From Marsupella aquatica (Eukaryota > Plantae > Marchantiophyta), in assembly GCA_973895155.1 (NCBI GenBank), contig OZ316895.1:13946225-14010224 (forward strand): a stretch of 64,000 nt of DNA, written 5' to 3'. The notes below the pieces were generated by a model that saw only the letters and a list, made by a program, of their open reading frames with translations, had not been told where the DNA came from and did not search any database. The translations under genes were made by a program, and so were the position numbers. Numbering within the stretch: the first letter of the stretch is position 1; the number at the start of each line of letters is the position of its first letter. Positions 1,622 to 64,000 of this stretch are shown piece by piece.

Positions 1622-1688
1622 ATATGTTACTTAGTTGCATATTGTATATCACCTGACTCATTGTGTGAACTTGAGTCAAGGTGGAGAT

Positions 1689-1984
1689 TGTTAGGAATTG
1701 ACTCCAGTTCTCGACATAATTAGCTTGGTCTTAGTAGGGTTAGTTAACCCTAGATTACATTTGGATAAGATCCGCTTAGTTTAGGCACACTCATCTTGGC
1801 CCCCTTGGGGGGTAAAGGCTGGAGGGAGAGCACTCTCTCCCTCATTCTTCACATGTACTCTCATTTGCTATGGAGCCTTCAGGAGTTTTTCCACTCGGGG
1901 TGTCTTGCCGGTGTAGCGTCTGATTGAGTGAGTCTCTCTCATGTTTCCGCATTGCTGTCTAGTCCGGAGCTGACGGTTCTTACA
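1689..1984 (+). repeat. 3' LTR of the Copia element (~296 bp)
   Basis: Purine tract AAGGTGGAGA (1678-1687) directly precedes TGTTAGGAA; the segment ends TTCTTACA, after which sequence switches to a different repeat family. Confidence 0.8.
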
Positions 1985-2218
1985 CCTTGTGCTTCAAGGA
2001 ATCCACGTTACATGCACACAACCTGGTCAGCCACACCATAGCCACCAAGCTCATGCTCAAAGGTTCAACATTGAAAGATGAGGCCTTTGAGCCAACACAA
2101 GGGGATAACTATCCCTCACACCAACTCAAACTAAACACAGTGCTCATATAGCATACATACAAAACCTCTATACCTAGATAGTACGATATACTTTACTACC
2201 ACTCTAAATGGTGTGACA
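1985..2218 (-). repeat. Partial LTR related to the LTR of the DNMT-carrying Gypsy element, interrupted by the Copia insertion
   Basis: Colinear matches to 58061-58298: CAAGGAATCCACGTTACA, ACCATAGCCAC, TCAACATTGAAAGATGA, ACGATATACT and the terminus AATGGTGTGACA. Confidence 0.85.
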
Positions 2219-2492
2219 TGATAGTAATGATTCCTGTTTTCTTTTTTATAAGGGTTCGGATCCTCCAATTGCATCTTCTCACATTATCAACAGATGTATC
2301 ACTCATTTTACAGTTAGCAAGATATCTGGTCTTGTCTTTTTTGTAGGTTATGATGATCCTTTTTGTTTGCACTCCATGATCAATAATATAACCCTTCAAT
2401 TCTTCAAATGAATCAAAGGTCTGCCCAACTTTTAGTCTACTTTTCCATTCAGAAATATCATGGTGGTTCATTGCCCTACAACAAGAAAGCAA
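2219..2492 (-). pseudogene. MuDR/Mutator transposase N-terminal DNA-binding domain fragment
   Basis: KVGQTFDSFEELKGYIIDH...KKDKTRYLANC...CNWRIR matches the DBD_Tnp_Mut pattern (G..F....E.K...; C...C.W.I); truncated at the LTR terminus at 2218. Confidence 0.8.
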
Positions 2493-3481
2493 CAGTCATC
2501 AAATTCAGCATCTGGAAATTAAAGGTCATAGTGAAAGTGCAAATGTTTATAGAGATTGAATAGCGGTAGCAACCTAAGTGCAACAATTCAATAAGAATAT
2601 GTAGACTTAACACACACACACAAGAATCACAATCCCACAAAGATAATGCAACAATTCAATCACAATCCCACTAAGAAATAGGAGAGTTTACGAAGCTCAC
2701 ATAGTTGAAGATATTGATCACGATTCCTGCCAGATCAATGGCATTTGAATAGAAGTTGCGATTCATTATTGTCTTGTGCTTGAACAGTTACCTATGGAGA
2801 TAGGAGCCAGTTGCTTATGGAGCCATGTTATCCAATCAAAAAATCTCCAAGAAAAATCAGAAAGGCAAAGTCAACAGCCTCTAAAATTCTGGTGAAAACC
2901 GATAGAAATTGCAGCTCAATTTGGGGAGCAATCTAGGGATAAAATGATCTAATGTGGACGTGTGATACCTAGCCAGGAATCACTAGGCCGGTTTACATGG
3001 TAAAGCAAGAGTGTACCCTGGAAACACCTTAGTATAGGAACAAAAACAAGGAAAATATAAACAATTAAGGGTGACTATGGAACCCGGGCCGAGGCCGGAA
3101 GTAAGGACGCCGGGGGAGAGAACATGATTAGGGTTAGGGGGCGCTAAGCGTCGGCGGCTAGGGGTGACCAACGGGAGGGGAGACCAGAGGAGGAGAGGGG
3201 TAAGGACCGCTCGCGAGGAATAGTGGCTCATTTGCAAGAACGAACTGGGTAGACGACTACGGGAGGCCAAATACTGTCAGCTGCTTAGGCAAGCACTCGG
3301 GGTGGGAATAGATACCAACGATCGACTCAAGGAGGGTATGAGCAACGTCAATCAAGCGGCACATTTTTGGGGATGCCTGTTCGAACGGGCAGGTGAGTAC
3401 GTCAAGACTTACGAGGATGAAGAATCGGAGAGAGCAGCTTGACAACGGTAGGAGCTCGCTCGACTCTGGGAACTATAGAAG

Positions 3482-6400: not shown

Positions 6401-6780
6401 AGAAGCGAAAACCTTCTAGGTCTGGGAGTTATATGACTTCTCAAGCCGTTGTGACCGAGAAGATAAACCCGGCACCAACCTCCGGCATCGGCACGGCGGT
6501 GGATCCACCAGTCCTAGGAAGTGGAGATGGCAAGGCCGACGCCGGGAGAACCAGTAATGCTGCCGAGGTACCGGGTCCTCCACTAGAACATGTCGGGGAG
6601 GCCGTAGCCGTAGCGGAGGCCGTGACCGATGCTAAGGCCAAAGCCGAGGGTGGACCCAGTCAGGCCGATGAAGAGTTGACTCGGTCAGGGACAGGTAATC
6701 TGTCAAAAGACGGACCAACGGCAGTGGTTGCGGAGGAAGCATTGGGGGCGTCCATTGAGGACCAGCCACCGGTGTCGTGA
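3482..6780 (+). pseudogene. Degenerate retrotransposon accessory ORF (plant transposon-protein-like N-terminal domain plus long coiled coil)
   Basis: ORFs 3482-3862 and 3884-4984 share one frame; 5155-5346, 5491-5934 and 6016-6780 share another (apparent frameshift near 4960). LLEFVGSW...TRVYGKDFFLTPRVIAEVFGLP resembles the domain in extra ORFs of Athila/Tat-type Gypsy elements; E/K/L heptads at ~5500-6240; no introns. Confidence 0.7.
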
Positions 6781-7699
6781 CGGTGTAAGGGTGCTGTCCC
6801 TTTTAGGGAGGGCGGACGTGGAGGTAGGAGGTGTGAGTGGGCAGGGCGGGCGTTGATCTCCAAGTTTAGACTTAGGATCAGGACCAGGAGACGGCCCTGA
6901 CACTTAGATTAGCGGGATTTCGGATCCACGGGTATGGACGACACTTGTGCTCCTGCCTCGCTGTACATAGGTAGATTACAGTAGGTAGATTATGCTTACG
7001 CTACAAGGAATCAGGCGGATCCACAACCAGGATAAGTACCTGGGCTGCAGGGAGTTCAGGGCCTCTTCTTTAGCAAGTTTTTAGTTGCACCAGCAGGGCT
7101 GGGATCAAGTAGTAAGAGAAGCTCTCGGTTAGTTATACAGTGACCCTTGTGTATATTCATGTTTCCTCATACCTAAGAACTGAATAGAGCTGGCCTCACG
7201 GCTTAGTTCGCAGAGCTTGTGTATGAGATGTACTGTTTGTATTGCAAGTGCATGGTATAACTCAGTCAGAAGGAGTCATTTTGCTATTTGTGTGTCGCAT
7301 TAACTTGTGTGAAGAGTGCCCACATCAACAAGTAGAAGGGAAGTAAGCAAGGGAGTGAGAGTTGGATGTGTCGAGCTGAGAGAGGTCTTAGCGGCTTAAC
7401 CAAACCAATTGGGGATCATTCCGGCGGCGGAATCCAAATATACCTAACCAACAAGAGGGAAAGACAAGAGAAGGCCTAGATTAGGCCAACTGCGTATCTC
7501 ATGACCCGATGAAGGATCTGTCCAGTACATGTGTGTAAAATGTTAATAGTAGTAGTAGAAAGGACGTTAGCAGCGTCCCATGCCGCTAAGCCACGGAAAC
7601 GGCCTCGCCGAGCATGAAACCTGTGGGAATCGGCTTTGCGGGGGGGTTTCTTGGGTTTGGGGAGCCATGGGATGCACCACAGGAGGTAGTAAAGGGATG

Positions 7700-8480
7700 G
7701 GAGTGGAGAGGAGGTTATGGAGGGGGAAAGCACAATCCCAACAAGCTACTCCACGCTCATTTTTGCATGCCCAACCCAAAGATATGTCAAATCAAAGTTG
7801 AACACACTATGCTGCTGAAAAAACTAATTTTTGCAGGGAAGTTGCGATTTGAATGTAGTGGCTATGGAGGCAAGACAGGGAGGGGAGTGGAGGGAAGACT
7901 ATGGAGGGGAGAATTGTGGTTCCAACGAGCTACTCCACGCTTGTTTATGTCTATCCAGTCCAAAGATATGCTAATCGAAGTTCAGGTGAACTGTGCTGCC
8001 AAAAAACTGATTTTTTGACAAAAAAGTTGCATTTTCTTTGGGGAAAACACGACTTGAATGTAGTGGCTATGGAGGTAGGAGAGGGAGGGAGTGGAAAGAG
8101 ACTATGGAGGGGAGAATTATGGTTCCAACGAGCTACTCCATGCTTGTTTTTGTCTATCCAATCCAAAGATATGCTAATCGAAGTTCAGGTGGATTGTGCT
8201 ACAAAAAAATTGGTTTTTCGACAGAAAAATTGCGTTTTCTTTGGGGAAAACACGACTTGAACGTAGTGGCTATGGAGGCAAGAGAGGGAGTGGAGGGGAG
8301 GGGAGAATATGGAGGGGGAAGTCATGATTCTAACAAGCTACTCCACGCTCACTTTGACCTACCCGATGCAAAGATATATGACACGGAAGTGGAAGGTCTA
8401 CTGTCACTGTCAACTCCCATTTCCTTTGGCAAAATTGCAAGTCCTGTATTCAAATCGCATTTTCTTTGGGAAAAACATGA
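7700..8480. repeat. Degenerate tandem repeat, ~4 units of ~185-205 bp, probably MULE subterminal
   Basis: Recurring ATGGAGGGG...AAC(A/G)AGCTACTCCA at ~7717, 7900, 8103, 8309 and TTTCTTTGGGGAAAACACGACTTGAA at ~8032 and ~8235. Confidence 0.85.
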
Positions 8481-15088: not shown

Positions 15089-15258
15089 TGAAATAACATT
15101 AAACTAGCCCAGTAATTTTTGATAAAGTCGCGACAAGTCACCTTTAATTGCGCACAACACAAATAACTTTAATGAAATAACATTAAACTAGCCCAGTAAT
15201 TTTTGTTAAAGTCGCGACCAGTCACCTTTAATCACGCACATCACAAATAACTTTAATG
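15089..15258. repeat. Tandem duplication, 2 x 84 bp
   Basis: TGAAATAACATTAAACTAGCCCAGTAATTTTTG...AAATAACTTTAATG starts at 15089 and 15173. Confidence 0.9.
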
Positions 15259-26100: not shown

Positions 26101-28085
26101 TTGATGGGTTTCTGTCTATACTACCTTGATAGATTTAGAAAGATCGGTTACCTTGGTTTACTCCTATTTGTGTAATTTTTCTGTTATTCTTACTAACCTC
26201 GATTTCTTTATATATACAGTCATTGGAAATGACGGCAACCTTTTCGAAAGATCTTGGCTCGGCTGCTGTGAGTGGTGGTCCTATCCATTCTGCACCACGA
26301 GCAGCTGATCGTGTCAATCTAATCGGACCAATGCCTGATCTAAGAAAGCGCAAAGATGACAGAGCTCTAGACAAAGACGAAGAAGACTACTTCAATGAAG
26401 ATAGGTAAGATTCCTGGTACTTTGTATGTGAAGTTAGCGGATAACTGGCCTGGTCTGCACAATGTTAATAGATCTGGGATTTGTGGTGGGTATTGCGAGC
26501 AATGATTGCAATTCCAAGAAACGAACACAGAACAGGGGCTCATCGCTGGCTTTATCTTCCATGGACTTTGTGAAGCTGGATTTTTATATCTCTACAGCAT
26601 TTTTGAGGTAGTTTCTTTGGCTAACTGATTTGCAGTGACGAGGAGGACGATACCGCATCTGCGCAGGTGCCCCCAAGGAGTCCTCCCCAACAAGTTATTG
26701 GCAATGGCAGTGTCCTTGTTGATGTTCCCTTCAGGTATAAATGTTTACGAGCTCCCGAAATTGGACTGTGGCGGTGGATGCTCGTGATCTGTAACTACTT
26801 ATGGTTAGATTCCCAGTAGTTTAGCATCACCTAATTAGTGGATGGGTTAATTTGCAGGGGTGGGCCGTTCGGGTTGGTTGATTACGAGGACGAGGATGAA
26901 GATGCTCCCGCCGGACTCGGCTATAGCAAGGAGGGATCTTCTGAGAGGAAGTCTGAAGGTTTGCTGCTACCAGCTTTACCAATTTCAGACCCCATTTGGC
27001 CTGAGATGGAGGATGTACCCGTCAAACGCAAGATAAGTGCTTCCTCGGACTCTCAAGGTCCTGAGGACGCCACAGCCGTGAAAAGGAGAAAACCGAAGAG
27101 TGAGGGTGGGAACAGCCAGTTAGGAGATTTGACAGTAGTGAGGGAGGGCAAAGAAAGGCCAACACAAGCGCCACTCATTCAGGAGACTCCCTCTGTGAAG
27201 AATGAAGCTAAGTCGGAGGAACCTTTGGAAGAGTCCAAGCAGGAGATGAAACAATCTGTGAATAACACTGGAGGGAAGATAGAAACATTGAATGAGGTGT
27301 CTGAAAAGGAAGCAACGCGACCGATGGAAAAAATACTGGGGAAGGTAGAATTGTCACTGCAAGATTCCGGCAACGCTATGAAGCAATCTACTGGTGAGGT
27401 AGTGGACGAAAAATTGTACCCTAAAGTTAAATCACCGACAAGGACAGCTGCAGAGGTTTCTGGTGTGATTGATGGCAAGGTTTGTGTTGAAGATTCCTAT
27501 TCCCAAGATGCACGGTCTTCAAATGCATCTGAAGCAGGCTTTCCGGCGGTTTATAGTGGTGCTGACCAAGGGACTGTTGAGCCAAAGTCCGAAGTGAAGG
27601 GTCAAGAATCTCCTGAACATGAGCCTACCGTCAGTGACACTATTGCTTCAGAAAAATCTATTCCCACAGGACGATCTCCAGGCACACCTGCTGGGGTCTC
27701 GAATATCCCTGACTCCCGGTCTTCAGACTCACCGCCAGGGGTTTCCAATGTTACTGACACCACGACTTCAGAGTCGAAAAACCAATCCGAGGTTGTTCAA
27801 CCCTTAGCTGAGCCGTCTGGAGTCGCTGCTTGTGCAAGTGGTGCTGAATCTCCTAATGGACATGAGAGTAGGAAAAGGTGTTGTGATGGTGGAAGTGAAA
27901 AGGAGACCAGCGGAAGTGATTGCAACGGATTACGTGAGGACTCCGAGAAAGTAGTTGTGGGAGCTAAGGAAAACAGTCCTCAGCACCTTATTAGCATAGG
28001 TAGTGATACTAAACTGGCAAGCTTAGGAAGTGAGATTCGAAGGGGAGGAACGCAGCCTTCACCAGGGCCGTATACTGTTCGATAG
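17199..28085 (+). CDS. PP4R3: Serine/threonine-protein phosphatase 4 regulatory subunit 3 (SMEK/PSY2-like), multi-exon
   Basis: Exon 1 [17 protein letters not shown] (17199-17249) splices to [21 protein letters not shown] (18503, EVH1 domain). Later exons give [69 protein letters not shown] and [15 protein letters not shown] junctions; long last exon to TAG at 28085. Confidence 0.95.
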
Positions 28086-29639
28086 ATGCGTTTTTGATAG
28101 ATATAGTGGCTAACACGTTTCCTGTTCAACGTCGAAGTCCTTGTACGAGCTTGCAGGGCTGCCCATCATAGTTCATCACTCAGCTTTTTTCTTGGAAATG
28201 AAGAAAAGCTGGTATTTTTGCCAGGGCAGGTTCTGCTTTGCTGAAGGGGATGGGATTTGGATCAAATTTGTGTAGAGTAGGGTTCGAGTACCCTGTGATT
28301 GTTGGGTCAACTTGCTATTGAAGGATATGCTCATGGGATCAGGTCTTAGGAAGCCCTCATTGGGTCATTGTTACCAGTCACAGTAAAGTGGTTGGGTCCT
28401 TTCCACTGAAATTATGGGATCCCTGGAACGGGAATGTATTTACCAGTATGTTCATTGCATAGGTGTGTACAGTACGGGGCACGAGTGTGTCACAAACCTT
28501 TAATGTTCTCTCAGAGGCTTTCACTTCACGTGATAGTGCTATGGCTGGAGATGACCACTATCTATAGCAAGGTGTTCGCTTCTTGCAGAGAAGTCTTATA
28601 GGAGCACAATTCAATTGCTCAAGCCAGAGAAAGAGAAGTCCCTTGCGGAATATGGAAGAATCTTGTTGTTATAATATTTAGGTGTACAAACAATGCCACG
28701 TCTGTCGTAGGAAGTGATTCAGCTCATGACGCGATAGGAAGCTTTAGCCTTGGGTTGGATGCATGGGTTGTCACTAACTCTTAGTCGCAATCACGTTGTC
28801 AAGTTTTCACCATGTCTGTTCCAGATAGGCGTTGTTCATCAGAGCGAAGGACTGGTTCAATCGCATGAGTTCTTGGAAAATCTGTCTGTAAAGATGTTAG
28901 GCTTCAGAAACTTACCGACGATTGAGCAAGGATGCACTCATCGATGGATGTTTTAATAGTATACTGTTTTCTCTGGATACTCACGTGAATGGACATGCAG
29001 AGCCAGATGGGGGCCTCACAAGGTTGTAGGTCGAGATTGCATTCAAGTCATTCTATTTAGAAGTATTTGGGCGACCATAGGACGATCCTTGGGAGAGGGG
29101 ACGCCTAATTGTTTCTAACAGGTCTGTAAGAACGATGGAACGCTTTACCCTTCACAGATGCCTATGGGCCTTTACAGTGCCTTCTACCGAATCCTCCTTG
29201 CAACGAATCCTGCGCAGAAAACAACAACAACGGATTATCGAGACGGGTAAGGATGTACTCCCGTTCCATATGAGAACTTCGTCTCTTTTCAAGCCTGTAG
29301 GTGTTGTGTGCGTTCTACCAATGAATCCGTCGAGAAAGGCTGGTACAATTGAACCTAGGAAGAAAGCTGTTGTCGTAACGCTTGCTGATGAATCTATCAA
29401 TACTCAATTGTACAGCTAAAACCCTTTCGCGGGGTCTGCAAAGGAGGACCGTCTTTTGTCTACAGTCTTGATATTGTATCCGAGGTGGTAAGGAACTATG
29501 GAACTCCATGGTTCTTGGTTTTGTAAGGATGAGGCAAGAAGATTCGTGCAAATACGACGAACAGTAAAGTAAAAATTATAGAGTCGGAATGGATAGGTCC
29601 CAGGACCAGCATTTTCACCCTGCTATAACTATCTAGGAT

Positions 29640-29955
29640 TTGAATGTGTCTGAATGAATAGCACTATGTGGACGTGTTGCAAAAAAGATACTGGCGAGAG
29701 GCAAAGATGTTTTTGAATGTGTATGAATGAATAGCACTATGTGGACGTGTTGCAAAAAAGATACTGGCGAGAGGCAAAGATGTTAAGGCAAGGCAAGGAA
29801 ATGTTGCACAAAAGATATCAAAGCAAGGCAATGATGTTAAGGTGAGGCAAGGAAAGATACCGGCCAGAGGCAAAGATATTAAGGCAAGGCAAGGAAATGT
29901 TGCACAAAAGATATCAAAGCAAGGCAATGATGTTAAGGTGAGGCAAGGAAATGCA
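29640..29955. repeat. Imperfect tandem repeats (GCAAGG-rich; ~77-bp and ~99-bp duplications)
   Basis: TGAATAGCACTATGTGGACGTGTTGCAAAAAAGATACTGGCGAGAGGCAAAGATGTT twice; AAGGCAAGGCAAGGAAATGTTGCACAAAAGATATCAAAGCAAGGCAATGATGTTAAGGTGAGGCAAGGAAA twice. Confidence 0.9.
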
Positions 29956-31709: not shown

Positions 31710-31995
31710 GACTTGAAAGGGGGAAGGGCCGGGCGCGGAGATGAGAGGCCCTCGAAAAGGGGGAGGGCCGGCTGCAGGGACAAAGAGGCCCTTGAAAAAG
31801 GGGAGAGCCGGGCTGCAGGGACAAAGAGGCCCTTGAAAGGGGGGAGGGCCAAGCTGCAGGGACAAAGAGGCCCTCGAAAGGGGGGAGAGCCCGGCTGCAG
31901 GGACAAAGAGGCCCTCGAAAGGGGGGAGGGCCGGGCAGCAGGGACGTAGAGGCCTTCGAAAGGGGAGAGGGCCGGGCTGCAGGGACGAGAGCCCC
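31710..31995. repeat. G-rich minisatellite, ~7 units of ~41 bp, in the MCM2 promoter region
   Basis: Unit approximately GAGGCCCTCGAAAGGGGGGAGGGCCGGCTGCAGGGACAAA repeated head to tail. Confidence 0.92.
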
Positions 31996-32705: not shown

Positions 32706-39635
<6,930 letters not shown>

Positions 39636-40009
39636 CTCCCTGTCCCTGATCTTCTAGTGTAAATATCCGATAGGTTGCCGTCGATTGCAATTTCCCTCTC
39701 ACCCAGTTAAGGTTTCTAGAGCCATCCGCTGGGAACCAGCGGCTTGTGAGAGAAGCAAAGCACTGACAATACTCCATACATGGTGCTGAATTCAAAACCT
39801 GGAGCTTCCTGCTCTTGGGTACTACGAGACTTGTAACACAGGCCATCACTGACCATTCCCAGGCTTGCTGTTTCATCAATGTCAGCAATCTGGAAGCCAC
39901 CTGCCTTTGAATTCGGAGCACCAGAGTTGAAAAATAAAAGAATTTGACCAACTTTCACAACTAGTAACACTTCCAAGCATGACACAGTGGATGCACAGGG
40001 TTTGCGGTT

Positions 40010-46074: not shown

Positions 46075-49000
46075 ATGGCGGGTGTCGGATGCCAATTGGG
46101 CAGCTCCTTCCTTCCCAAGACGGGTGTTCGGGATCCCAAGCTCGTATCGAATAATCAAGCTGCTGCTTCTTCTCCTCAATTTCCTCGCCCACCAGGAGCG
46201 GCCAATCTCTACTCCATCAGTGCGTACTTGCACTAGCTCTAGCTCTAGCTCTGTCTGTCTGTGTCTTCTTGCTGTGCATTTGTTTCCATACAACTTTGGC
46301 TGTCACGGTGAGCCTACGCATTTCACACACCTCTAGCTGTGCTCGTGCGTCCCCGAGCGTCGCCTTTGCCTGCCAATTGCCCACTTCTCGTCTCACCTAT
46401 AGAGTTCCGCTTTGAATGGTATATAAACTACATGAAAGTCGAGGCCAATTGAGGAATGTTCTCAGCCCGCTGATCTGCTAATCTGTGTTCTCAGTTCCGT
46501 CAGTCATCTTCAGTTTTGAATTGTTTTGGATGCTACCGTTTGAGCTTTGGATTCTGAAATTGGTTCTCTCTCGCTCTGTCGATCGGCTCTATTTGGGTGT
46601 GCAATTTCCGTGCAATTCCTCGACTAGAAGATGCGGGTCTGTTGTTGAAATTGCATGATGGTTGCGATGATTCTTTCTCAAATTTTATGTCAGTAGTTCT
46701 CACTGACGGCAGATGGGAGAATTAGCTAAGTACGTGAGTGACACCTCTCTCTCTCCAATGTTGCACAATGAACCCAACCGACGACGGAGTTAATGTTTTG
46801 ATGAGCATTTTGTATGCTTTTGAGTTGATAGTCTGAGCGCGGGAAGAATAATGTCCTCAGGGGCATCATCACTGGGGAGTGGAGATCCAATCAGAGCTTG
46901 GATTGTTGGAGAGGGTGGAGCCACCAAGATCACCAAAATCGCCCCCGTTGGCGGTGGTTGCATCAACACTGCCATGCGATATGACACTGATTCGGGTTCC
47001 TTCTTCGTGAAGACTAACAGGCAAGCTTCAAAATAATCAACTCAAGTACAGTAGACATAGTTTGGCCATTTCGTTTTGCCCAACCATGACTTGCTTGATC
47101 GCAGCTTTGGATTTGGAATGCTTTCTGATTCTGGGAACATGATCTCTGACACCCTTGCAAAACAGAGACGTTGGGGCAGCCATGTTTGAAGCAGAAGCCG
47201 TTGGATTGGATGCCATGTATGCCACCGGCGCAATTCGTGTCCCGAAACCTTACAAGGTTTGTCCTACTGACTTTCTTCGAAGAGCATAAGCTAATGAAGC
47301 TACCCTTTAGATCATCAAGCATCTCTGCCATCTTCGTGTGTTAGTGGCAGAAAATAAATTTACTTGAATAGCTGCCTTGATTCTTTCCCTCCCTCACTTT
47401 CAGGCCAGTAATGCAATGAGATGTTTATCTCCAGGTGATGGTAAAGGTTTACCAAGATTGAATTGCTTTTCAGGTAGGGCCGTTGCCAGGAAGAGGATCT
47501 TACATCATCATGGAGCACATAAGCATGGGTGCATCTGTTGGTGGACAGGTAGAATTCTTTACCTAGTGCTAGTCGCAAGGCGTGGGGACTTCTTATTCCT
47601 TTGTGGTTTTATTAATTGGGTGCGAATTTCATTGTATATGCGACAACACAGGCGACAGGAGATCTACAGGCTACAAGAGGTGGTTCATTGTTTTAAAGTG
47701 TCTTGATTTCTCAAAATTACTGGCTAGAAGCGGACTCACCTGATGACGGCTGCTTGTCTAGGTGGAACTGGGCCGGAAACTTGCTGAAATGCATAAAGCA
47801 GGGCGAACTGATAAGGGTTTTGGTTTCGACATGGACAACACAATTGGAAGGTCTGCTTCTGAGTTTTTCAAAGTTCTGAATTGTCGGCAGATGCAAGCTG
47901 TGGCAACATATCATTACAAAAATGGAATGAATACCGTCTCATAGCCTCGATACCATTGAATCTGTACAGTACTTGTTAGATTTGAGAAGCAGAACTGATT
48001 TGTAAGTCTGCGTTGACAAGGTGCAGCTAGCAAGTGGGGTAGCTTCGTTCGTGTGTTCCATGCGTGCTTCGATTGACAAGCACAAGAAAGTACTCCACTC
48101 TTGTGGAGCGGAGTTTCCGTCTGAAAGCTTCATGTTTCAGTCTACTTTCTGTGCTGGTTCTTGCGGTTCGAAAAGGCTTTCTTCTGACCAGTTGATATCT
48201 ATACTACCAGCACGCCTCAAAAGAATCCGTGGACAAGCGACTGGGTTACATTTTTCCGGGATCATAGACTTGGTTATCAGCTCCAGCTGGCTGAGAAACA
48301 ATACCGCGATTTTGATATCGTAGAGAAAGGTCCATACTAGTCACCTAACCAGAGAATATGACCAAATCTGAAAGGCTCTGGTTTGTTGATCCCAAGTAGT
48401 AATTTGTAGCTGTCCTCTTAGGGCAACTATCGCTGGCTGTGAGGGTTATAGTCGCTTATGATCCTGAGAATTTGTTTACTTGAAAGCATCTAGCTAGAAT
48501 TGAAGATATGCCTGCAGAATCAGGTTTCAGGAAAAATGGGTGGATTGCTCACTAAATGTCGAATAGGGGACCGTACACCAAGTCATGCTCATCATAGTGC
48601 TGTAGAGGCCAGCCTAGTTGTGATCTGTAGGACCTCCCCGGTGCAAGTTCTATGTTTATATTTTATAGTTCTATCAGTCCAGACAAAATTTTGAGTTGCT
48701 GCCGAAAGAGCCGATTGAGGTCTTAATATATGTTCTACATTCCAGGAAAGAGGTTGCTCGACAAGCTTCCTTCGATCTTTCGGGACGTGAAGGTCGAGCC
48801 TTGTCTTCTCCACGGGGATCTCTGGAGTGGCAATATTACCGCTGACGAAAACGGGGCTCCTGTTATTCTCGATCCGGCCTGCTATTGTAAGAATCTGCCG
48901 ACAAGAGTAACAGCTTAGTGGGAGTTGGTGTTATGCTTATCAGGAGACCTGAGTTGGAAATTTGGAGTCTAACTGTACATTTCTTACCAGCAAGGGTTGT

Positions 49001-49746
49001 GTCTATTCGTTCTCCCAATATTTTTCTATTGGCCCTCTTGGTCTAGGAGTGGATTAACTGGTGTCTTGTGGGGAATTGAGTCATACTTCTGAAGCGGTGC
49101 GTTTGAGCTCCACTCTAAACCCCGACAGAAAATTGTTTCTTTCCACAGATGGTCACAACGAAGCTGAGTTCGGGATGTCTTGGTGTGCCGGGTTTGGATC
49201 CAGCTTCTACGATGCTTACTTCAAGGTCAATTCTCTTCTGCATGGCAGGCCTTTGGATTGACGTACATGTGATTCCTTGTAGAGAGGCACAATATAGTCA
49301 AAGTAGCCAAGCTTGAATAGTTCTACAGTTTGCTGCTACCAATTATGAGATGACACTTCCATTACTTAAACTCACATTAATGCGTTGCACTTTAATAGGC
49401 GTAGGAAGTGAACAGTTCGTTTTGCCATATTTTTTCAGATAGAGGGGTATGAGCACAAGCCCTAGTTATGAATTTATGAAGAACTTTAGCGAATGTCCAG
49501 TTTGTTTTAGCAAGTCATATCCAAGCTGTCAAAGTGAAACTGGACATCCTGGCCAGGATTCTATGAAATGTCATTCATGTCTTGTGCGAATTTGCGTTCG
49601 TGCAGGTTATCCCGAAGCAACCCGGGTTTGAAAGGCGAAGGGAGCTTTACAGATTGTATCACTATTTGAATCATTACAACCTTTTTGGATCCAGCTATCG
49701 CTCGTCAAGTATGTCAATCATCCAGAGTTTTGTCAATCAATCATAA
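46075..49746 (+). CDS. Fructosamine-3-kinase family protein (protein-ribulosamine 3-kinase, probably plastid-targeted), multi-exon
   Basis: [79 protein letters not shown]; stop TAA 49744-49746. The conserved part starts at 46851; the upstream transit-peptide-like exon from ATG 46075 is tentative. Confidence 0.93.
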
Positions 49747-50836
49747 ATCCCAGTTGAGCCAACGAGGAGGAGATCCAAATTGAGCCAAGTAGGTGGAGAA
49801 TCCAAATTGAGTCGACGAGGAGGAGATGGTCAGAGCGAGTACTATGTAATCGTTGCGCTGAGCATTTAAGCGGTGCCCAAAATTCGTGTAACTTTGTAAG
49901 AGATTGTCATTGTCGGAGGGAGGTGGTGTACGAAATAGTTGAGAAGGCAAAACAGAAGACAATATGGGATGGTGACGTTGTGGACGGGCTTTTGGATTGC
50001 ATTACATCTGAAGTTTGGCAGAGTATAAGGTACTGAATTATGTGTGTTAGTGTTGGCTTCAACCAGGCAGGTGCGGAAACGTGCTGTTTGCTACAAATGT
50101 TCAGAAAGAGAGGGATCAGTTGTCCTTTGCTTCGGTACTTTTGATTATCGCGAGCAGTCATTGTGCGAATGTAAAATTTATGTGTCGGTTTAATGGGTTT
50201 TGTAGATCCTTTTTCAAGTTCTATGTTACCTTTGTCGAGATTATTGTTCATTTTATGGCAGAGGTTGACACGTACCTGTCATGAAAGAAAGAGAACGGAT
50301 TTTGTTCGGACATTTGATGAAGCGTAGAGATTGCAAATTGGCTAACCACTATCAGCTATATTCTCACCGCATTGTATTGGTACTCCGAGGGAACAAAATT
50401 ATATTTCATCCATCCTGATATTGATCTGCTGTACTAACCAAATTACAGAGCTACTTACCAAATTACTGGGCGTATTCGCATACCCACCTTTTCACAAGTG
50501 AGTTTTTTAAATCGAAATTAGTGACCAAATGAAGGAACCCAAAATGCACTTGGTCGACACAATTGATCATATTGTCGATACGGTATATGATCTGCACGGG
50601 TTTTCACCCTTATCGGTGATCAGAAGACGGGAATCAAAAGTCTTGGTCAAGATAATGCGTAAGAAGTAACCTCTGGAACATTTTGATCATTCTTCCCATC
50701 GTTAATGTACGCTGAAAGATATTTGTATTACAAAACTTAATTCCACTTGCTGAATGTGTCCGAAAAGTCTGACTGTCAATATAAATTCCCTCAAGAGAAC
50801 AAATGCCCTCCGAAGTTGTGAGAAATCAACTTCTGA

Positions 50837-52706
50837 TCACAAGAGATGGGTTAGTAACTCGGCGGCAGTGGCAATAGCTCCACCAGTGGCTGCTGAGCGA
50901 ATCATCTTGTCTCGGTTGTATCGACTATCAGCGAATGTGAGGATTGCACCAGTCAATGCTCCCCCCAACATAGCATTTTTCTGCATCATTGCCAAAAGCG
51001 TCAGCTAAGGCGTTGTACAGAACACAGCTTCGCCACCACTGAACGAAACTAATGAAATACTGCGTTGCACTATGAAAGAATCGACACACTAGGATTGGTG
51101 GCTTACCCAATCGTGCTTTCCGCGAGTTTGTTGCATCCCGTATTCCATCCCAGTGTAAACGCCAGCAATAGCACCTACAAAATGAAAATTCAACATGTCA
51201 ACGAACCGCAGCAGTGCTCCGAACAGTGGGAAAAGTCCAGGGAGGAAATTACTCGCTGCCCTTAATGATTACAAAATACGGAAATAATATAAAATCGGAA
51301 ACTTTTCCAGAGGCAGGACGTGCCAGTCACATACCCCATTGAATTCCTTCCTTGACCATCTTCTTGAGTCCTGATTCAATGTCGGCCTTCGATATACTTT
51401 CTGCAGTATCGACCATCTAAGCATGTCACATTACGTCTCGTCTAGCATGGCATAATTGGGTCTCCATTGGGGAGAGCAAGAGCACAAAAAGAATGAGTGA
51501 ACCATTACTGATTGTCGACCATCTACTGATTTTCTAGATTGCATCATCCTTTCACTCCGAAATTTTTTAGTTCATCAGCTAGTTCTCTTCGGGTCCTCAT
51601 AATTCGTGAAGTTTCATTCAATCATCGCATTCGTGATTATTAGATTCTTCACCGAAGGAGCTGAGTCTGGTGTGCGTGTAACGCGTGCCGTTGACTTCTC
51701 ACAGCGATGCAGATGACTGTAGGGTGGAATTTCATGTACCTTTCCTCAAACAGCTGAATGTTTCTTGAACGGCAGCGTGTGACGAGCCAACCTGCGTAAT
51801 CAGCACATTCCAACAGTCCCTTCAGACGAGATAGACTAGGAACCATACAAAAGTCGGCCAAAGAAATCTGTTCTGAAAGAGAGGTATTACATAACGCAGT
51901 TTCTAGCCTTCCACTCCAGTCTTCACAACTTTTGCGAGATTAACGGAGATCAAAACCCCAGTGCCGGATCGGTTGGAGACGACTTGGAGATCGGGATGGC
52001 CAATAAACTCTTAAGGTACAGGTTGCTATGACGGGTTGAGGTACTGCCCCTTGATGCTTGTAAACCTCACTCTTCCAATGTTCGGGAAAAATTGTCCACA
52101 AGCTGCAGTTCACGAGATCTCGATACGTCTCACGACATAATCTTCCGAATTCTGTCTACTATGAACTCTGTTTCCATTGAAGCACCATCGACAAGGTCAT
52201 TCGTTCTAATATTGGCTTAGACCCGGCTACCCCGATGAGATCTCCAACCCAATGTATGCCAGAAATGATCAATTTCCGTCCTAAGAGCCAAGATCTTAGA
52301 AACGTCGATTGTCACTCTCGCTCTGAGTCCCTCGGCCAGAAATGATCAATTTCCGTCCTAAGAGCCACGATCTTAGAAACGTCGATTGTCACTCTCGCTC
52401 TGAGTCCCTCGGCCAGATTTGAGACAACGTTGTGAAGATTAATCCAATCCCTCTTTCGCCCCTCTCGACCGGCCTCACAGAATGGGAACCATGATCCCGG
52501 AAGAGTTAAGAACAACCGAGCATTGGGGGCTCTGCAACAGAATGTGAGGTGGTTGCGAGGGCAGCAGGCATGAAAGCAAAGCTGTGACTTACTATGCCAA
52601 TCTTGAGGAAGCTGTCCACTGTTCTGTTAAAAAAAGGGTGGCCCATGTCGACGAAGACATCCACAGTCGGTGAGTCGAACCGGCTCGCAATCTTTGCTCG
52701 AGGCAT
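50837..52706 (-). CDS. OEP16: Chloroplast outer envelope pore protein 16 (Tim17/22/23 family), 5 coding exons
   Basis: Exons: MPRAK...VDMGHPFFNRTVDSFLKIGI (52706-52593); VGSSHAAVQETFSCLRK (~51790-51740); SISKADIESGLKKMVKEGIQWG (~51400-51335); AIAGVYTGMEYGMQQTRGKHDW (~51175-51107); KNAMLGGALTGA...GGAIATAAELLTHLL* (~50980-50837). GT-AG junctions. Confidence 0.92.
52258..52417. repeat. Tandem duplication, 2 x 77 bp, in OEP16 intron 1
   Basis: GCCAGAAATGATCAATTTCCGTCCTAAGAGCCA...GAGTCCCTCG repeated with one visible mismatch. Confidence 0.92.
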
Positions 52707-57500: not shown

Positions 57501-57831
57501 TATTAGTATTTTTGACTATGTAGATGGAAGACATACAAGGACGTTAGGATATCTTTGTGCCAGATTATATAAAGTACACGTGTCACTATATGATTGGTAC
57601 ATGTGGCATGCATAAATTTCCAACATGTTTTCTAGAGTCATGTATGCGTTAACATGGCAAGAATTTGGGAATACTTAGTGGGTCTAGTTTTGGGAGGACT
57701 CACTTTGTAGAGTTTGACTCGAGTTTCACAAGTTTAAATTCGCAATTTAAATTTGTCCTAACCTGTTTCATGTGTGTTGTTACCCTCCATTGCCCCTTCT
57801 CAGTCTAATCCCATGTCGTTTCCCTCCACTC

Positions 57832-58298
57832 TGTCGTGCGCATACATATCGCTACACAACATACATCGCTAGTCACATACATCCAGACATAGTCACACTG
57901 CCACATCACAAATACAAGAGAATGGAATACAAGTGGAACTCATGTCCACACATGTCCAAAACCCACAATAATCTCCATACAATCGGCACAACGATCTCGG
58001 TCAACAATACCCCATCGATCCCGCACCGATCCGATCACACACGTATGTCAAGCCAACGCACCTTGCACTACTCAAGGAATCCACGTTACACAAGCGGAGC
58101 TCACAGCCACCATAGCCACACTCAAGCTCCTCTCTCTCCAAGGCTCAACATTGAAAGATGACCTTTCAATGCCTCACAAGTGAGAAGTACCCTCTCACAC
58201 AAACCTGACAGAACCTTATCGACTCCAATAGCACTCATACCAAACGTACATACTCTAATAGCACGATATACTACTACACTACTCAGAATGGTGTGACA
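57832..58298 (-). repeat. 3' LTR of the Gypsy element (467 bp, TGTC...GACA)
   Basis: Minus strand begins TGTCACACCAT and ends GCACGACA; the same start is the terminus of the homologous copy at 2218. Confidence 0.85.
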
Positions 58299-58300
58299 GC

Positions 58301-58438
58301 TGTCGTGCGCATACATATCGCTACACAACATACATCGCTAGTCACATACATCCAGACATAGTCACACTGCCACATCACAAATACAAGAGAATGGAATACA
58401 AGTGGAACTCATGTCCACACATGTCCAAAACCCACAAT
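58301..58438 (-). repeat. Extra 138-bp copy of the LTR 3' end between PPT and LTR
   Basis: Identical by eye to 57832-57969; preceded on the minus strand by the purine tract AGGGGGGCG (58448-58440 region). Confidence 0.95.
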
Positions 58439-58614
58439 CGCCCCCCTAGCTGGGAGTAAGGTCCCCTAACTCTAGCTAGCCATGAGTTCTACAAGGTTGA
58501 TATACACCTTTTTAGGTGTGAAGATCAGGAGGCCGGGTGCAAGTGAGCCCCATCGATCACCTACCTGCAATCCATATCTGCCAAGAGAACACAAATGATA
58601 ACTAGTCGGCTTCA

Positions 58615-58752
58615 CCGACACTGAGGACACAACCATGATCCACTAGGAATCACCTGCAATGGTGGTGTCAAACATGACATGTGCCATCCTCTAGAACACT
58701 TATCACAAATCAACATAGTAGCTGCTCCCTGAGCAGATCCACACAACATACA
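58615..58752 (-). other. PHD finger at the integrase C-terminus
   Basis: CMLC...MLICDKCSRGWHMSC...IPSGSWLCPQC fits C4-H-C3 with the conserved P-x-G-x-W-x-C. Confidence 0.95.
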
Positions 58753-61700
58753 TTTCAAGCCAGCATGAACATGTGCCAAGCTTGGATCTACTGTACCATC
58801 AATGTTGGGAAGGTGACATGGTGCACAGTTGCGCACATGATCCTTCCAAACCATACCATCGCGTCCCTCCAACATCAGGACACCAGAAGGCAACACTTCA
58901 CGCACACGTAAGATTGTCCGGCCTGCGGTCACATCAAGTGTCGTGGGTGCTGTCTGCTGCAAATAAACATAATCATCGGGATGAAATCGTCGAATGCTTG
59001 CACGGTAACCTCCTCCACGAATAGTGGCATACCTCAAAGTATCACGATGTTGGGCAATGGCAAGGTTGTTAAAAGCCATGGGCATCACTCTCTGAAATAC
59101 CCGTGCTCTTTCTGAACACACCTTGACCCAAACATCAGGATCATCCAAGTTCACAACTGGTGCAGCATGACGACGAATAGCTGCTGGCAAATCTGGCTCT
59201 CTACCATAGAGCAAAAAGTAGGGTGAGAAGGATGCAAGTGATGCTTGCCGACTGAAACGGTAGCCCATAGCTAACCAAGGTAGCTGGAGATCCCAATCTC
59301 CTAGATGACCAACCTGCAAGCCATACTTACGCAATCCTCTCTTCACAGTTTGCACAACTCTCTCAGCTAATCCATCTGCCTCAGGATGATCACGAGAGGT
59401 GGTGCGATGATCAATCAGAGCTTGTTCACACAAACTCTCAAACTCTCCACGGAACTCAGTTCCCTGATCAGTCAACACCTCAGCTGGTGCTCCAAAATGA
59501 CTGAGTACACGATCCAAAAATGTAGCAGCAACTCCTCCACTGGCTTTATCTGGCAACGCCACTAGCTCAATCCACTTGGAGAAGTGCTCCACCATGACCA
59601 AAACATACCGATTATGACGTTGGGTAAGAGGTAATGGACCAGCAAAATCCAAACTCCAACGATATCCCAAACCCATGATCGGTAATGGGTGCAACTGGGG
59701 AGTGGGAGCATTAAATGATGCTCTCACTCTGTCACATACCACACACTTAGCTATCAACTGCTGGACATGAGTGTGCATACCACGCCACCAATACTGCGTC
59801 TGCAGCAAGCTGTAAGTGCGCTTCACACCAAAGTGACCCAACTCCTCGTGCGCATGTCGCACCAAATGTACTCGTTGTGATGGTTTTGGTACCACCAACA
59901 TCCTACCATCATGCAGTACTCTCAAAAGATGGTTTCCCTCCCATCGAAACCTCTTGGCTCTCTGTAGAACCCTGTCACGTTCCTTGGCATCAACACTGCC
60001 AACAATAGAACTATTGCGCAGATATTCCAACACTCTCACATCATTGTGAATATCTTGTTGTCCAGAAGTTACCTCACCAACATCCACATCTGAAGACTCA
60101 TCACCCACTCCATCCAATGAAGTAGAGTCCACAGATCCACTGTATGCTGGCACCCAACAAAGAAAGGCAGATGCATGCCATCCTGGCACCATCTCTTTAT
60201 CTGACTCATCATGCCATCTAGCTCCAGTCTCATCCTGCTGACTGGTACATGGATTGCGGCTTAATCCATCTGCATCCAAGTTCACTTTTCCAGGCCTATG
60301 CACCACCTGGAAATCATACTCCTATAACAACAATGCCCATCATGCAAGCTTCCCTGTAAGCTTGTCAGACTCCATTAACCACTTAAGAGGCTGATGATCA
60401 GTGATCAAGGTGAAGGGGTTACCAAACAAGTAGCAACGAAAGTGTGCAACAGCCCACACTGCTGCCAAACACTCTCCCTCATAAGAGCTATACTTAGCCT
60501 CTGCTGAATTGTTTGATCTACTGGCATAAGCCACAACAAACTCATTCCCCTCATCATCCTTCTGAGTCAGCACTGCTCCAAGTCCTACTCCACTCCAATC
60601 AGTGTGTAGCTGAAATGGTCTGCCTGAAATGGGTCTTCTCAAAATAGGGGATGATGTCAACCTTTGCTTCAACTCCTGAAAGGCATGCTCCTGGTCATCA
60701 CCCCAAATCCATTCCTAATCCAACTTAGTGAGTATGGTCAAAGGTTTAGCAAGCTGGCTAAATCCTTTAACATACCTCCTGTAGTAGCTCGCCAATCCCA
60801 AGAATGCACGAACTCTACTCACATCAGTAGGACAAGGAATCTGTGTAATGGCCTCCACTTTAGTCTGTTGTACACCCAATCCCCCTGGGTATATGGTGTG
60901 GCCCAAATACTCAATCTGGTCTTGGAAGAACTTACACTTGCTAGGATGGAGCTTCAACCCATGTGCTCTCAATCTCTCCAACACAGTCTGCAAGTGCTGC
61001 TGATGTTCTTCCACAGTAGAAGAATAGACCAAAATATCATCAATATAACATCTGACAAAATCCAAACCTGCAAGGATTCGATCCATGACTCTCTGGAACT
61101 CAGCTGGGGCATTCTTCAACCCAAATGGTAAGAATAACCATTGATACAAACGATCTTTGCCATAAGAATCAATCCCCCAGAATGCTGTCTTGGACCTGTC
61201 AGCATGCCTAATTGGAAGCTGATGGTATCCTGCCCTCAGATCCAATGAACTGAAAACCTTTGCATGCCCCACAGCATCAAAGATCTCCTCAGGTGTGGGC
61301 ATGGCATATCGATCAGATTTTGTCTGGCGATTAATAGGTCTGTAATCACCACACATGCGCCTATCTGTGTAATTGCCATGCACATCCTTCTTGGCTGGCA
61401 TCACTGTGGCAGATGCATACTCCCCATATAAAATCTCCACCAATCCAGCCTCCAACAAATCTTGAGTTCTGCTTTGAATCAGAGCTCTCTCCATGTCACT
61501 ATAACGGTATGGTCTACGAAAGATTGGCGCATCACTAGCCAATTCAATCTGAATACCAGGGCCCTTCAATGTCCCCAAATCCTTCATGCTGAATGCAAAA
61601 CAATTCCAATAACTCTTCAGGAATCGATGCATGCGACGTCTCTCCTCCCCTGTTAACTTAGGGCCAAGCTGTGGTTCCCAACTCTCCACCAAATTCCTAA

Positions 61701-61924
61701 TATCTCTTTGTAGGGTAGAAGAGATAGCCGATGATTGCTATTTAGCAGTAGATTGAGCAGTCTCTTCCTGCTCAACAATCTGTCCAGCTGCCAATCCTGT
61801 CATAGGTCCATGGACTGTCTGCTCGCCCCCAGCTGTGGTCAATACTGTCTCAGTGGACCGCAAGCTCACCAAGGGACAATCAGTAATTCCGGCAGAGCGC
61901 ATCCGCAACTGTTCAGCTACTCCC

Positions 61925-62877
61925 AAGCTGATAATCCAAGTCAAACAATTCAAATCCATTGCTTGACCAAGAACCTGGCGCCGCAAACCCTCTGACACAG
62001 AGGCAACTATAGTGGTGCCAGTCAAAAATCCCATAGCACGCTCTCTCTCATCAGCAGTAGGCTCCACTAACTGTTGGAGAGCTGTGTCCCATACAAGTCC
62101 AGGGCCACCTGCTCTGAATGCATATGAAGCAGAGTGGCTTACAAGAGTGGGTAATGCACAACGTGGGCACCCAACTGCATTGACCATTGCCAATGGAGGT
62201 CTATCAGGTTGGGTCACACCCTATGCACGACGCCCTGGATCCAAAATATCATCCACCACTAAGGCTGGTGAGCGTGGAATGCTGTCAAATACACGCTTCA
62301 GCACCTCACATGGGATCAAATTAGTCCATCATAAGCGTGGACGATGTGCACGAGAACCCACACGTGCAGCATCCAATAACACAGCAGGTCCAATCCAAGA
62401 CCTCACTTGGTGAACACTGGCAACAATCCGACTACGATCATCACCTAACAATGACACATTCTCCAAAATGTATGTTGGAGACTGTGTCTGATGTAGCTGG
62501 AGGTGACGCAGCACCCATAACATCTCCCAAAACAATGCAGAGTGTGGATCATGAAGTCCATGCCCAATGCCAGCTCTAGATTGGCCCTGACATGGCCAAC
62601 CAGCAATCACCAAATCAATGGGGCCAACACGATGTAGATGATCCGCCCCCAGCAATGAAATATCAGTAGGTAGTGCATGCTGATAACCACGAACAGCATC
62701 CACTGGTAGCAACTATGGATATCTATCCACCAACATAGCCACATGTCGCAATGAGACCCTCCGTGCTGTCTCATCTGTCTCCACATACAAATAACGACGC
62801 ACAGGAATTCCTGCCTGAAGAATAGCAGCCAATCCAGTGCTAATCCCACCAAAAAGATCCAACAAACAAATACCCTC
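61925..62877 (-). other. C5-cytosine DNA methyltransferase domain (DNMT3-like) inside the Gypsy polyprotein
   Basis: Motif I LLDLFGGISTG (~62850); II YVETD; IV DLVIAGWPCQGQS (PCQ 62587-62595); V SALFWE; VI ILENV (62455-62463); VIII LDAARVGSRAHRPRL*WTNL; IX ERERAMGF; X RRQVLGQAMD (~61960). Canonical, non-permuted order. Confidence 0.93.
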
Positions 62878-64000
62878 CGGTGAATATTGCCAAGCAATAG
62901 GAGTGGTATCCAATGGTGAAAGAGTCACAGGTCCATCTGCAAGAGACTGCTCTACTCCTGACTGTGGTGTAAAAGCATGACGCCATGCATCATGTACCAA
63001 TCGTGCTGCTGCCTGTGGCAAGGCTTGTGCAGTGCCCCACACTAGTGGCACAACACTGCCAACAGGTAACCCTCGCATGATGTGCTCCTCATGAGACTCC
63101 TCCAATGGTGGAACATCGGTTGCATGCGCATTACCCTCAATCAAATCATCAGGTCCAGCAATTACACCACTGAATGCTGCCAAAGACAATGGTGTGGATT
63201 TAGAGCCTCCCACAGGTCCACTAAATCTCACTGGCAATTTGCTCAATCGAGCATCTCCTGACTGCCAATCAGGTCTATATGACACTGATTCCTCCCAAAA
63301 ATCAAGAATAAATTCCATGGGGTAGAGCACTGTACATCCCACCAACACATCATATAACTCTGCCTTAGTCAGAATAGCTCGCGCCTGTATCTGTGAGCTA
63401 TCTGTGGTATGACCTTCCTGAATCCTCAAATCAAGTGGTCTCCTGGTGATATGCTGTGTAGGTGTAGGTCCCCCCAATGAAGTCTGAATGGGAAAGGGAC
63501 AATCCTCCAAATCCTCTGGACGCAATCCCAATCCACGTATGGCAGACTTCCCCAACATCAAGGGCTGAGCACCAGTATCCAGTAACACTCTCTCTGGCTG
63601 GTATACTGCTCCAGAAGGCCCAACTAATCGGAAGATACCACTCCGATTATCCAATGACACAACACTAGATTTAAACCTAGTCCTCTCAAATGCAACGCGT
63701 GTTGGTAAATCCACCAACCTCGCTACTGCTGCATGCCATGTCTCACTAGTAGCAGTAGGTGGCATGGTCTTCACTGCATCAACACTGCAAGTTGCTTCTG
63801 CATGGGAAGCAACCACTGGAGTGTCCTCACAGAGTGTAGCTGTCAATCTGAACATTTCTGCAGGACCAACTCCCAAGTTCAGCATGTCTGTCGCTGAAAA
63901 TAATGGGGTGCGTACTATGGCAGTAGCCGCCCCCAGCAAGGTACCTGTCATCCCTGCTGCATCACTACCTGATTCTGCCAACTTACCCACATCAGGGTTT

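Follow-up and report, generated by a model that had tools for sequence, protein, structure and literature searches.

A land-plant branch of Gypsy-DNMT3 retrotransposons: conserved, likely leaky stop, permuted ends and a PHD finger at the integrase tip

A 64,000-nucleotide stretch of the liverwort Marsupella aquatica (GenBank GCA_973895155.1, contig OZ316895.1, positions 13,946,225 to 14,010,224; here called the window) contains a dead, decayed member of an old, high-copy Ty3/Gypsy-type retrotransposon family that encodes a DNMT3-like C5 DNA methyltransferase. The methyltransferase is a standing part of this family and is under purifying selection. The element represents a land-plant branch of Gypsy-DNMT3 elements, marked by a conserved and likely leaky stop between methyltransferase and polymerase, permuted ends and a PHD finger at the tip of its integrase. 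Elements of this kind have been known since 2018, when KnitGypsy-Dnmt3 was described in the alga Klebsormidium nitens (PMC5890265); the name Gypsy-DNMT3, for streptophyte elements, is that of a preprint (10.64898/2026.05.21.726589).

A methyltransferase within a Gypsy frame

Read on the minus strand from 63999 to a stop at 58614-58612, the element forms one frame of 1795 codons with no frameshift and seven internal stops. Six of these look like decay, and the seventh (61740) is conserved. Protease, methyltransferase, reverse transcriptase (RT), RNase H, integrase and PHD finger follow one another in this frame (Table 1), the Gypsy order that a first-pass annotation had read from the sequence alone. 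Pfam places DNA_methylase at frame codons 460-529 (E 1e-7, over the cut-off), RVT_1 at 878-1036, RT_RNaseH at 1099-1228, Integrase_H2C2 at 1373-1427, rve at 1446-1539 and PHD at 1750-1794. Asp_protease_2 matches weakly at 135-183 (E 0.019, under the cut-off). The integrase has Ty3 Gag-Pol among its best solved matches, and full-length relatives (P0003, P0017, P0028) carry ~600-770 residues with CCHC-like zinc knuckles ahead of the protease. Contig depth on the element is ~100 times that of the flank in runs X1 and X2 and is even over the domains, a measure of depth and not of copy number.

The methyltransferase spans ~327 codons rather than the ~315 first estimated. Its motifs lie at 62862 (I), 62601 (IV, PCQ), 62469 (VI, ENV), 62349 (VIII, RxR), 62049 (IX) and 61980 (X), in unpermuted order. 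The best solved relatives by sequence are DNMT3A, DNMT3B and DNMT3C (E 7.5e-11), followed by a DRM-type entry (6e-4) and HaeIII (3e-3); a profile comparison returns DNMT3A at E 4e-25. The predicted fold of P0108, a 72% identical relative (pLDDT 91), is likewise closest to DNMT3A (E 5e-20, TM 0.83 of target) and resembles DNMT3-DNA complexes. Sequence, fold and motif order thus bear out the DNMT3-like, unpermuted domain originally proposed. Assignment to the DRM type was rejected, since the motifs run from I to X unpermuted and DRM entries match the first 128 residues only. In the window copy, codons 429, 557 and 593 are stops that break the domain. Among 146 near-full domains aligned, the catalytic cysteine, glutamate and two arginines are all retained in 129 of 137 ungapped homologs, which speaks against the catalytically dead consensus protein that had been named as a possible outcome.

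Spread, selection and descent of the domain

The domain is widespread. A search with the methyltransferase returned 106 longer and 178 similar-length homologous proteins, with named relatives in Marchantia polymorpha (up to 72% identity over the full domain), M. paleacea, Calypogeia fissa (71%), Riccia sorocarpa, three species of Sphagnum, Closterium and Haematococcus. Among named organisms, liverworts and peat moss contain the element's nearest relatives; P0003, P0005 and P0007 correspond to the Marchantia loci Mp_4g09160, Mp_8g17980 and Mp_6g11220. The suggested presence of such elements in land plants is therefore upheld by Marchantia, Calypogeia, Riccia and Sphagnum, and the domain is no one-off insertion, given that relatives carry it. 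A search with RT-integrase returned 930 proteins at E<1e-100, including proteins of Klebsormidium nitens and Tetraselmis and one Coleochaete transcript. In Riccia the locus tags of methyltransferase and Pol matches adjoin, and every methyltransferase copy seen is element-borne, none having exons of its own. No methyltransferase named K. nitens appears among the matches listed (all 106 longer and the best 120 of the 178 similar-length proteins). A further search covered 1.84 billion representatives with a profile that included integrase and PHD columns, so that its totals are no count of methyltransferases, and only its domain orders were used. A scan of IMG/VR gave 21 pattern matches, of which none was confirmed.

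Two sets of observations touch on where these sequences turn up. Air metagenomes from a single study (runs X6-X9) contain roughly a quarter of the words of the element, with X6 covering 30 of 30 bins, as expected from airborne spores or plant debris. Three element proteins (P0123, P0364, P0107) are labelled Obscuribacterales, Synechococcales and Spirochaetia, labels that are likely metagenome-bin contamination.

Purifying selection is evident in the ratio of nonsynonymous to synonymous change (dN/dS; Nei-Gojobori on stop-masked codons, with dS near saturation for distant pairs). For the methyltransferase it is 0.10-0.26 between families, far from the neutral value near 1 that had been named as a possible outcome, 0.14-0.23 between the window and 13 loci, and 0.10-0.13 among the close stop-free relatives L023, L025 and L026. 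RT is lower, at 0.04-0.10 (0.07-0.10 for the window against 11 loci).

The domain occupies one of two places. In type A it lies ahead of RT (the window, bryophytes, Closterium, Tetraselmis); in type B it lies between RNase H and integrase (Haematococcus, Scenedesmus and others). Across 51 sequences with both domains, types A and B form separate clades in the methyltransferase and RT trees alike, the RT tree contains 15 of the 17 methyltransferase splits that are well supported, and the Mantel r is 0.62. Because the types separate in both trees and the splits are shared, the sequences fit a single old capture and, later, a single relocation. The trees were built with FastTree and have long branches and weak deep nodes, and the RT tree is rooted arbitrarily on P0341. 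In it the window groups with Marchantia, Calypogeia and metagenome loci (support 0.99), then with Coleochaete. Three K. nitens proteins represented by RT only (P0284, P0300, P0312) enter the wider RT clade of the window through weak nodes (0.39-0.78).

A conserved stop between methyltransferase and RT

The seventh internal stop (61740-61738) lies between methyltransferase and RT in the context UAG-CAA-UCA, a strict in-frame instance of UAG-CAR-YYA. This nonamer is the tobamovirus readthrough consensus, ~10% efficient in vivo (PMC2754532, PMC3159437). In the contigs of four runs, 393 in all, the listing gives no variant at 61732-61747, and positions on either side vary. At the premature stops of codons 557 and 593, by comparison, nearly all depth carries another letter (among the variants listed, 40 of 783). 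This differs from the first-pass annotation, in which the stop was treated as decay to be read through; it is conserved and likely leaky. The placement of the methyltransferase in the pol frame between protease and RT holds insofar as the domain shares the frame of RT, but it closes open reading frame 1 (ORF1), upstream of the stop. ORF1 is Gag-protease-methyltransferase. Pol is likely produced by readthrough of the UAG.

Comparison among copies supports this view. Many type A relatives stop soon after the methyltransferase, and P0002 (85% identical) does so at the very residue of the window. From 51 metagenome loci, 43 and the window span the end of the domain; leaving out four that are too short and one of type B gives 39. 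TAR-CAR-YYN is found in the methyltransferase-RT linker of 33 of these. The six misses comprise two copies with an insertion, one that is more decayed and three distant loci without a stop. Twelve loci including the window have a single in-frame stop between methyltransferase and RT, and it is always TAG-CAR-YYN. The strict form UAG-CAR-YYA occurs in the window, L007, L023, L025, L026, L033, L038, L039, L043 and L046, and not one of 237 decay stops precedes CARYYA. Many of these loci are one family or repeat assemblies and hence not independent; they fall into ~6 groups by linker identity. The upstream 150 nt of the groups align at 40-57% only, which indicates that the nonamer has outlasted its surroundings. 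One locus, L023, is intact apart from this stop: ORF1 (976-5082) and ORF2 (5086-8226) flank it in frame. An RNA structure 3' of the stop was considered and is not claimed; a long stem is predicted in five of five sequences, but its z-scores range from -0.4 to -2.5, and of the two groups compared, one shows weak covariation and the other none.

Several observations count against readthrough as a general rule. The largest locus family (L005) has CAACCC rather than strict CARYYA, and seven of the 33 loci have TAA. Distant relatives lack the stop, among them L047-L049 and the continuous Gag-Pol proteins P0241, P0271, P0469, P0499 and P0502; since distant relatives are stop-free or of type B, readthrough is not needed family-wide. 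A rather improbable alternative holds that the stop is a true terminator and that reinitiation, or else a separate or a spliced RNA, provides Pol, an account of expression only and compatible with any function of the domain. Reinitiation is possible in the CAACCC-ATG or TAA copies, and in the L005 family an ATG indeed stands two codons past the stop, directly after CAACCC. The window, L007, L023, L026 and L043 lack that ATG and yet retain both CAR-YY and the frame.

Element ends and integration

The repeats at the ends of the element are permuted. Downstream of the PHD finger come a conserved region, a polypurine tract, repeat B (138 nt), the bases GC, repeat A (329 nt) and a second, identical B. 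The window thus shows a B-A-B 3' end, and the complete locus L029 reads A-coding-B-A-B. Plain A-coding-B copies also exist (L015, L041), and a single terminal B is seen in L009, L013 and L018 as well. In the L029 family 11 loci start with TGTCA, and the B repeats end in GACA or its CpG-decayed form. A 4-bp target duplication flanks all four loci with both ends (L015, L019, L029, L041). The repeats are split and do not form two ordinary direct long terminal repeats (LTRs), one per end; TG...CA termini, a target duplication within 4-6 bp and a polypurine tract are all as in Ty3/Gypsy elements. In relatives no TGG-type primer-binding site was found after repeat A, as judged by eye, and the window contains no tRNA genes.

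At the junction GACA-GC-TGTC both termini meet head to tail, and two extra bases lie between them. The LTR proper is inferred to consist of B+A and to contain the integrase site. Cleavage of a two-LTR or a one-LTR circle by integrase at GACA-GC-TGTC would account for the two end patterns. Against this scheme, A-coding-B could also arise by recombination of two B repeats.

Two other homes for the element were rejected. Troyka elements have CG...CG termini and a 3-bp duplication and are confined to animals (PMC12440569), in disagreement with the TGTCA/GACA termini, 4-bp duplication and plant hosts seen here. A DIRS-type element is contradicted by the DDE integrase and target duplications and by the lack of a tyrosine recombinase. 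Two irregular configurations were observed as well. In run X2, seven contigs show unlike sequence beside the start of repeat B (window 57974), which the end model does not predict. L019 (11619-12510) and L022 are truncated after RNase H and carry rearranged A pieces followed by B, with the 4-bp target duplication retained.

A PHD finger at the integrase tip

The PHD finger is common to types A and B. Its best solved matches are CHD4, DPF3, ATXR5, KMT2D, KDM5B (KDM5 PHD1), PHF21A and UHRF1, many of which presumably read H3 tails unmethylated at K4. The place of the finger in the sequence, at the tip of the integrase, suggests a role in integration targeting. Assignment to the chromoviruses was rejected, as the integrase C-terminus bears a PHD finger and no chromodomain match (Pfam). 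Distant PHD-bearing Gypsy polyproteins (P0320, P0330, P0337) carry a DAM methylase (PF05869) or thymidylate/deoxynucleoside kinases.

Table 1. Features of the element in the window
Feature	Position	Strand	Basis or remarks
Gag-protease linker	63628..63999	-	open frame; gag and 5' repeat A are outside the window
Aspartic protease, DTG motif 63585-63565	63280..63627	-	motif; weak Asp_protease_2; PF13650 on relatives
DNMT3-like C5 methyltransferase, motifs I-X unpermuted	61906..62886	-	Pfam, structure matches, alignment, motifs; stops at codons 429, 557, 593
Conserved in-frame stop, UAG-CAA-UCA, end of ORF1	61732..61740	-	no variant listed in contigs of four runs; related loci
Reverse transcriptase core, YIDD 61047	60892..61368	-	RVT_1, E 2e-34
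RNase H	60316..60705	-	RT_RNaseH, E 9e-35; stops at codons 1095 (just ahead), 1220, 1226
Integrase, HHCC zinc domain and DDE core	59383..59883	-	Integrase_H2C2, rve
Integrase C-terminal region without Pfam family	58765..59202	-	30-83% identity over relatives
PHD finger at integrase C-terminus	58618..58752	-	Pfam PHD, E 2e-10
3' untranslated region; conserved motif 58554-58543, polypurine tract 58451-58441	58439..58611	-	~70% identity to related loci, 147 nt
Repeat B, first copy, 138 nt, GACA end	58301..58438	-	repeat comparison
2-base spacer of internal B/A junction GACA-GC-TGTC	58299..58300	-	junction shared by L026, L029
Repeat A, 329 nt, TGTCA start; second copy predicted at 5' end outside the window	57970..58298	-	in L029 the equivalent recurs 8674 nt upstream
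Repeat B, second copy, 100% identical to first; element 3' end	57832..57969	-	repeat comparison
Predicted 3' target-site duplication GAGT, partner outside the window	57828..57831	-	inferred from 4-bp duplications in 4/4 two-ended loci

Relation to known systems

KnitGypsy-Dnmt3 (PMC5890265) is the closest known counterpart. It too has Gypsy domains, an intronless, unpermuted DNMT3-like domain under purifying selection and the DIRS-like repeat order A-coding-B-A-B, and K. nitens RT-integrase proteins belong to the same wider RT clade as the window; the kinship to Klebsormidium elements first proposed is supported by domain set and repeat order. The differences lie in distribution and detail. 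Capture of the domain was placed in the K. nitens lineage (PMC5890265), whereas the present host is a land plant and related elements extend to chlorophytes. The available text of that paper does not mention a PHD finger, a readthrough stop, A-coding-B copies or a target duplication. The methyltransferase shares the RT frame but is split off by the conserved stop here, and is continuous with it in distant relatives.

Other elements share single traits. SymbioDIRS-Dnmt3 is also a split-repeat retroelement with a DNMT3 domain, whose de novo CG methylation has been demonstrated, but it has a tyrosine recombinase, an unrelated RT and a dinoflagellate host, in place of the DDE integrase found here (PMC5890265). 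EpiLTRs and DAM-LTRs are LTR-type elements that likewise combine a DNA methyltransferase with a chromatin reader; they differ in a DNMT sister to DNMT4, a DAM domain and a chromodomain reader (10.64898/2026.05.21.726589). Gypsy-7a_cRei of Chlamydomonas also has a PHD finger in a Gypsy polyprotein, and its insertions are biased to intergenic DNA; the available text lists no methyltransferase, and the legend places the PHD before the integrase (10.1101/2022.06.16.496473). Tobamovirus type I readthrough uses the same in-frame nonamer before the polymerase, here found in a retrotransposon after a methyltransferase, and rice gypsy elements include readthrough candidates (PMC2754532, PMC3159437 for the former; PMC2754532 for the latter). 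The host enzymes PpDNMT3a/b of non-flowering plants have a similar unpermuted DNMT3-type catalytic domain and in addition a C-terminal DUF3444 (PMC6453930), which Pfam does not find in the element frame.

A literature search, with most subscription papers outside its reach, gave no account of such land-plant elements, their readthrough or their PHD finger, and a plant LTR classification paper has no mention of PHD, methyltransferase or Marchantia. Two later papers (one being 10.64898/2026.05.21.726589) speak of 'streptophytes' in the portions available, and this term may already include bryophyte copies in supplementary trees.

Proposed mechanism and alternatives

The reading that is somewhat favored, from sequence and by analogy, is that the methyltransferase, made at Gag level, methylates the new cDNA of the element itself. 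Most ribosomes would end after Gag-protease-methyltransferase and about one in ten would read on to RT-RNase H-integrase-PHD; because most would stop after ORF1, the methyltransferase would be present at Gag-like numbers per particle. The protease would release it, and it would methylate the cDNA inside the particle or as a circle. The PHD finger would direct integration to nucleosomes without H3K4 methylation, and the new copy would thereby land pre-methylated in quiet chromatin. Self-methylation is suggested by the near-invariant catalytic residues, co-inheritance with RT, the activity of DIRS-borne domains and the loss of CpG from the element. Related DIRS-borne DNMT3 domains perform de novo CG methylation in yeast (PMC5890265). 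At codon positions 3-1, the element has 8 CpG against 78 expected, compared with 10 against 26 in a Copia-like fragment of the same window.

These arguments are offset by others. The single KnitGypsy-Dnmt3 domain tried in yeast gave no methylation, a result that its authors call inconclusive (PMC5890265). CpG loss is nearly nil in two distant GC-rich relatives (0.88-0.89), and host silencing can likewise cause such loss. The proline of the PC motif is substituted in 40 of 142 ungapped homologs, mostly distant ones, and the target-recognition loop is so variable that the methylated context is unreadable from sequence. The protease, too, lies on the Gag side of the stop, and the methyltransferase may owe its place there to this neighbor.

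Other explanations place the activity elsewhere or dispense with it. An active methyltransferase might work mainly on host chromatin, with older copies, rival elements, viral DNA or the site of insertion as its targets, and the host might benefit. Enzyme made in the large amounts predicted from the Gag part would suit this unlikely reading, host-benefit and antiviral roles have been proposed (PMC5890265, PMC6338049), and the PHD finger of the readthrough product could tether the methyltransferase to chromatin before cleavage. The finger lies after the stop, however, and would be absent from most methyltransferase molecules, while co-inheritance with RT over green plants and copies that are all element-borne, without exons of their own, fit the element's own benefit. 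It is a shade more doubtful that the domain persists because of some function that is not DNA cytosine methylation; it might bind or shield cDNA ends or the circle junction, or methylate element RNA. The inactivity of the Klebsormidium domain in yeast, the altered PC motifs and the two relatives without CpG loss can all be cited for this, but the catalytic Cys, the ENV Glu and the RxR arginines are nearly invariant and the predicted fold is like that of DNMT3-DNA complexes. A neutral passenger, or a one-off insertion peculiar to the window copy, is refuted as an account of the domain. Its three stops in the window, one low-depth contig that lacks the entire domain (joint 61788-63096) and a dN/dS of ~0.44 among close decayed copies might have suggested drift, yet RT is equally relaxed in those copies (0.52), selection is strong between families, and hundreds of homologs form a tree congruent with that of RT.

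Self-methylation also enters a broader picture, which is tentative and on balance doubtful. The elements may form an ancient, undescribed green-plant retrotransposon superclade that spans chlorophytes, liverworts and peat moss and in which a DNMT3 writer is paired with a PHD finger reading unmethylated H3K4, in a parallel to host DNMT3-ADD. They would integrate from circles through an att site inside the LTR; in land plants a leaky stop of viral type would have evolved and would load particles with methyltransferase so that new copies self-silence, and their copy number may add to bryophyte methylomes.

Other features of the window

Several features lie outside the element, all on the plus strand except where no strand applies. 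A fragment at 2-1621, presumed Copia-type from motifs in its translation, encodes RT/RNase H with few stops, and its part at 734-1618 has no Pfam match. An intron-split MCM gene at ~33000-40000 has an MCM_N match in 34221-34691 and is taken from its peptides to be MCM2; an intron-split fructosamine-kinase gene lies at ~47500-50500. Long GC-rich open frames at 3863-6780 and 26835-28085, one with a coiled coil and neither with a convincing Pfam family, are possibly accessory ORFs of other transposons. Tandem arrays occupy 29639-29948, 31718-31986, 52258-52411 and 15089-15256, with periods of 73/96, 41, 77 and 84 nt.

Implications

The family bears on how such sequences are annotated. The conserved stop accounts for gene models that break off past the methyltransferase or splice over it. 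Annotation based on LTRs would likely miss A-coding-B copies, since these have no terminal repeats, and bryophyte DNMT3 gene counts may include element domains. The conserved stop predicts methyltransferase at Gag-like amounts.

Land plants, with tracheophytes as an example, were said in 2019 to have no methylase-encoding transposons, and a hypothesis was built on their loss (PMC6338049). The copies in Marchantia, Calypogeia, Riccia and Sphagnum show that bryophytes, at least, retained such transposons. In 2018 the role of the methyltransferases was left open (PMC5890265). Marchantia is a genetic model in which existing methylation mutants release transposons (10.1101/363937), and the role of the methyltransferase therefore becomes testable by observation.

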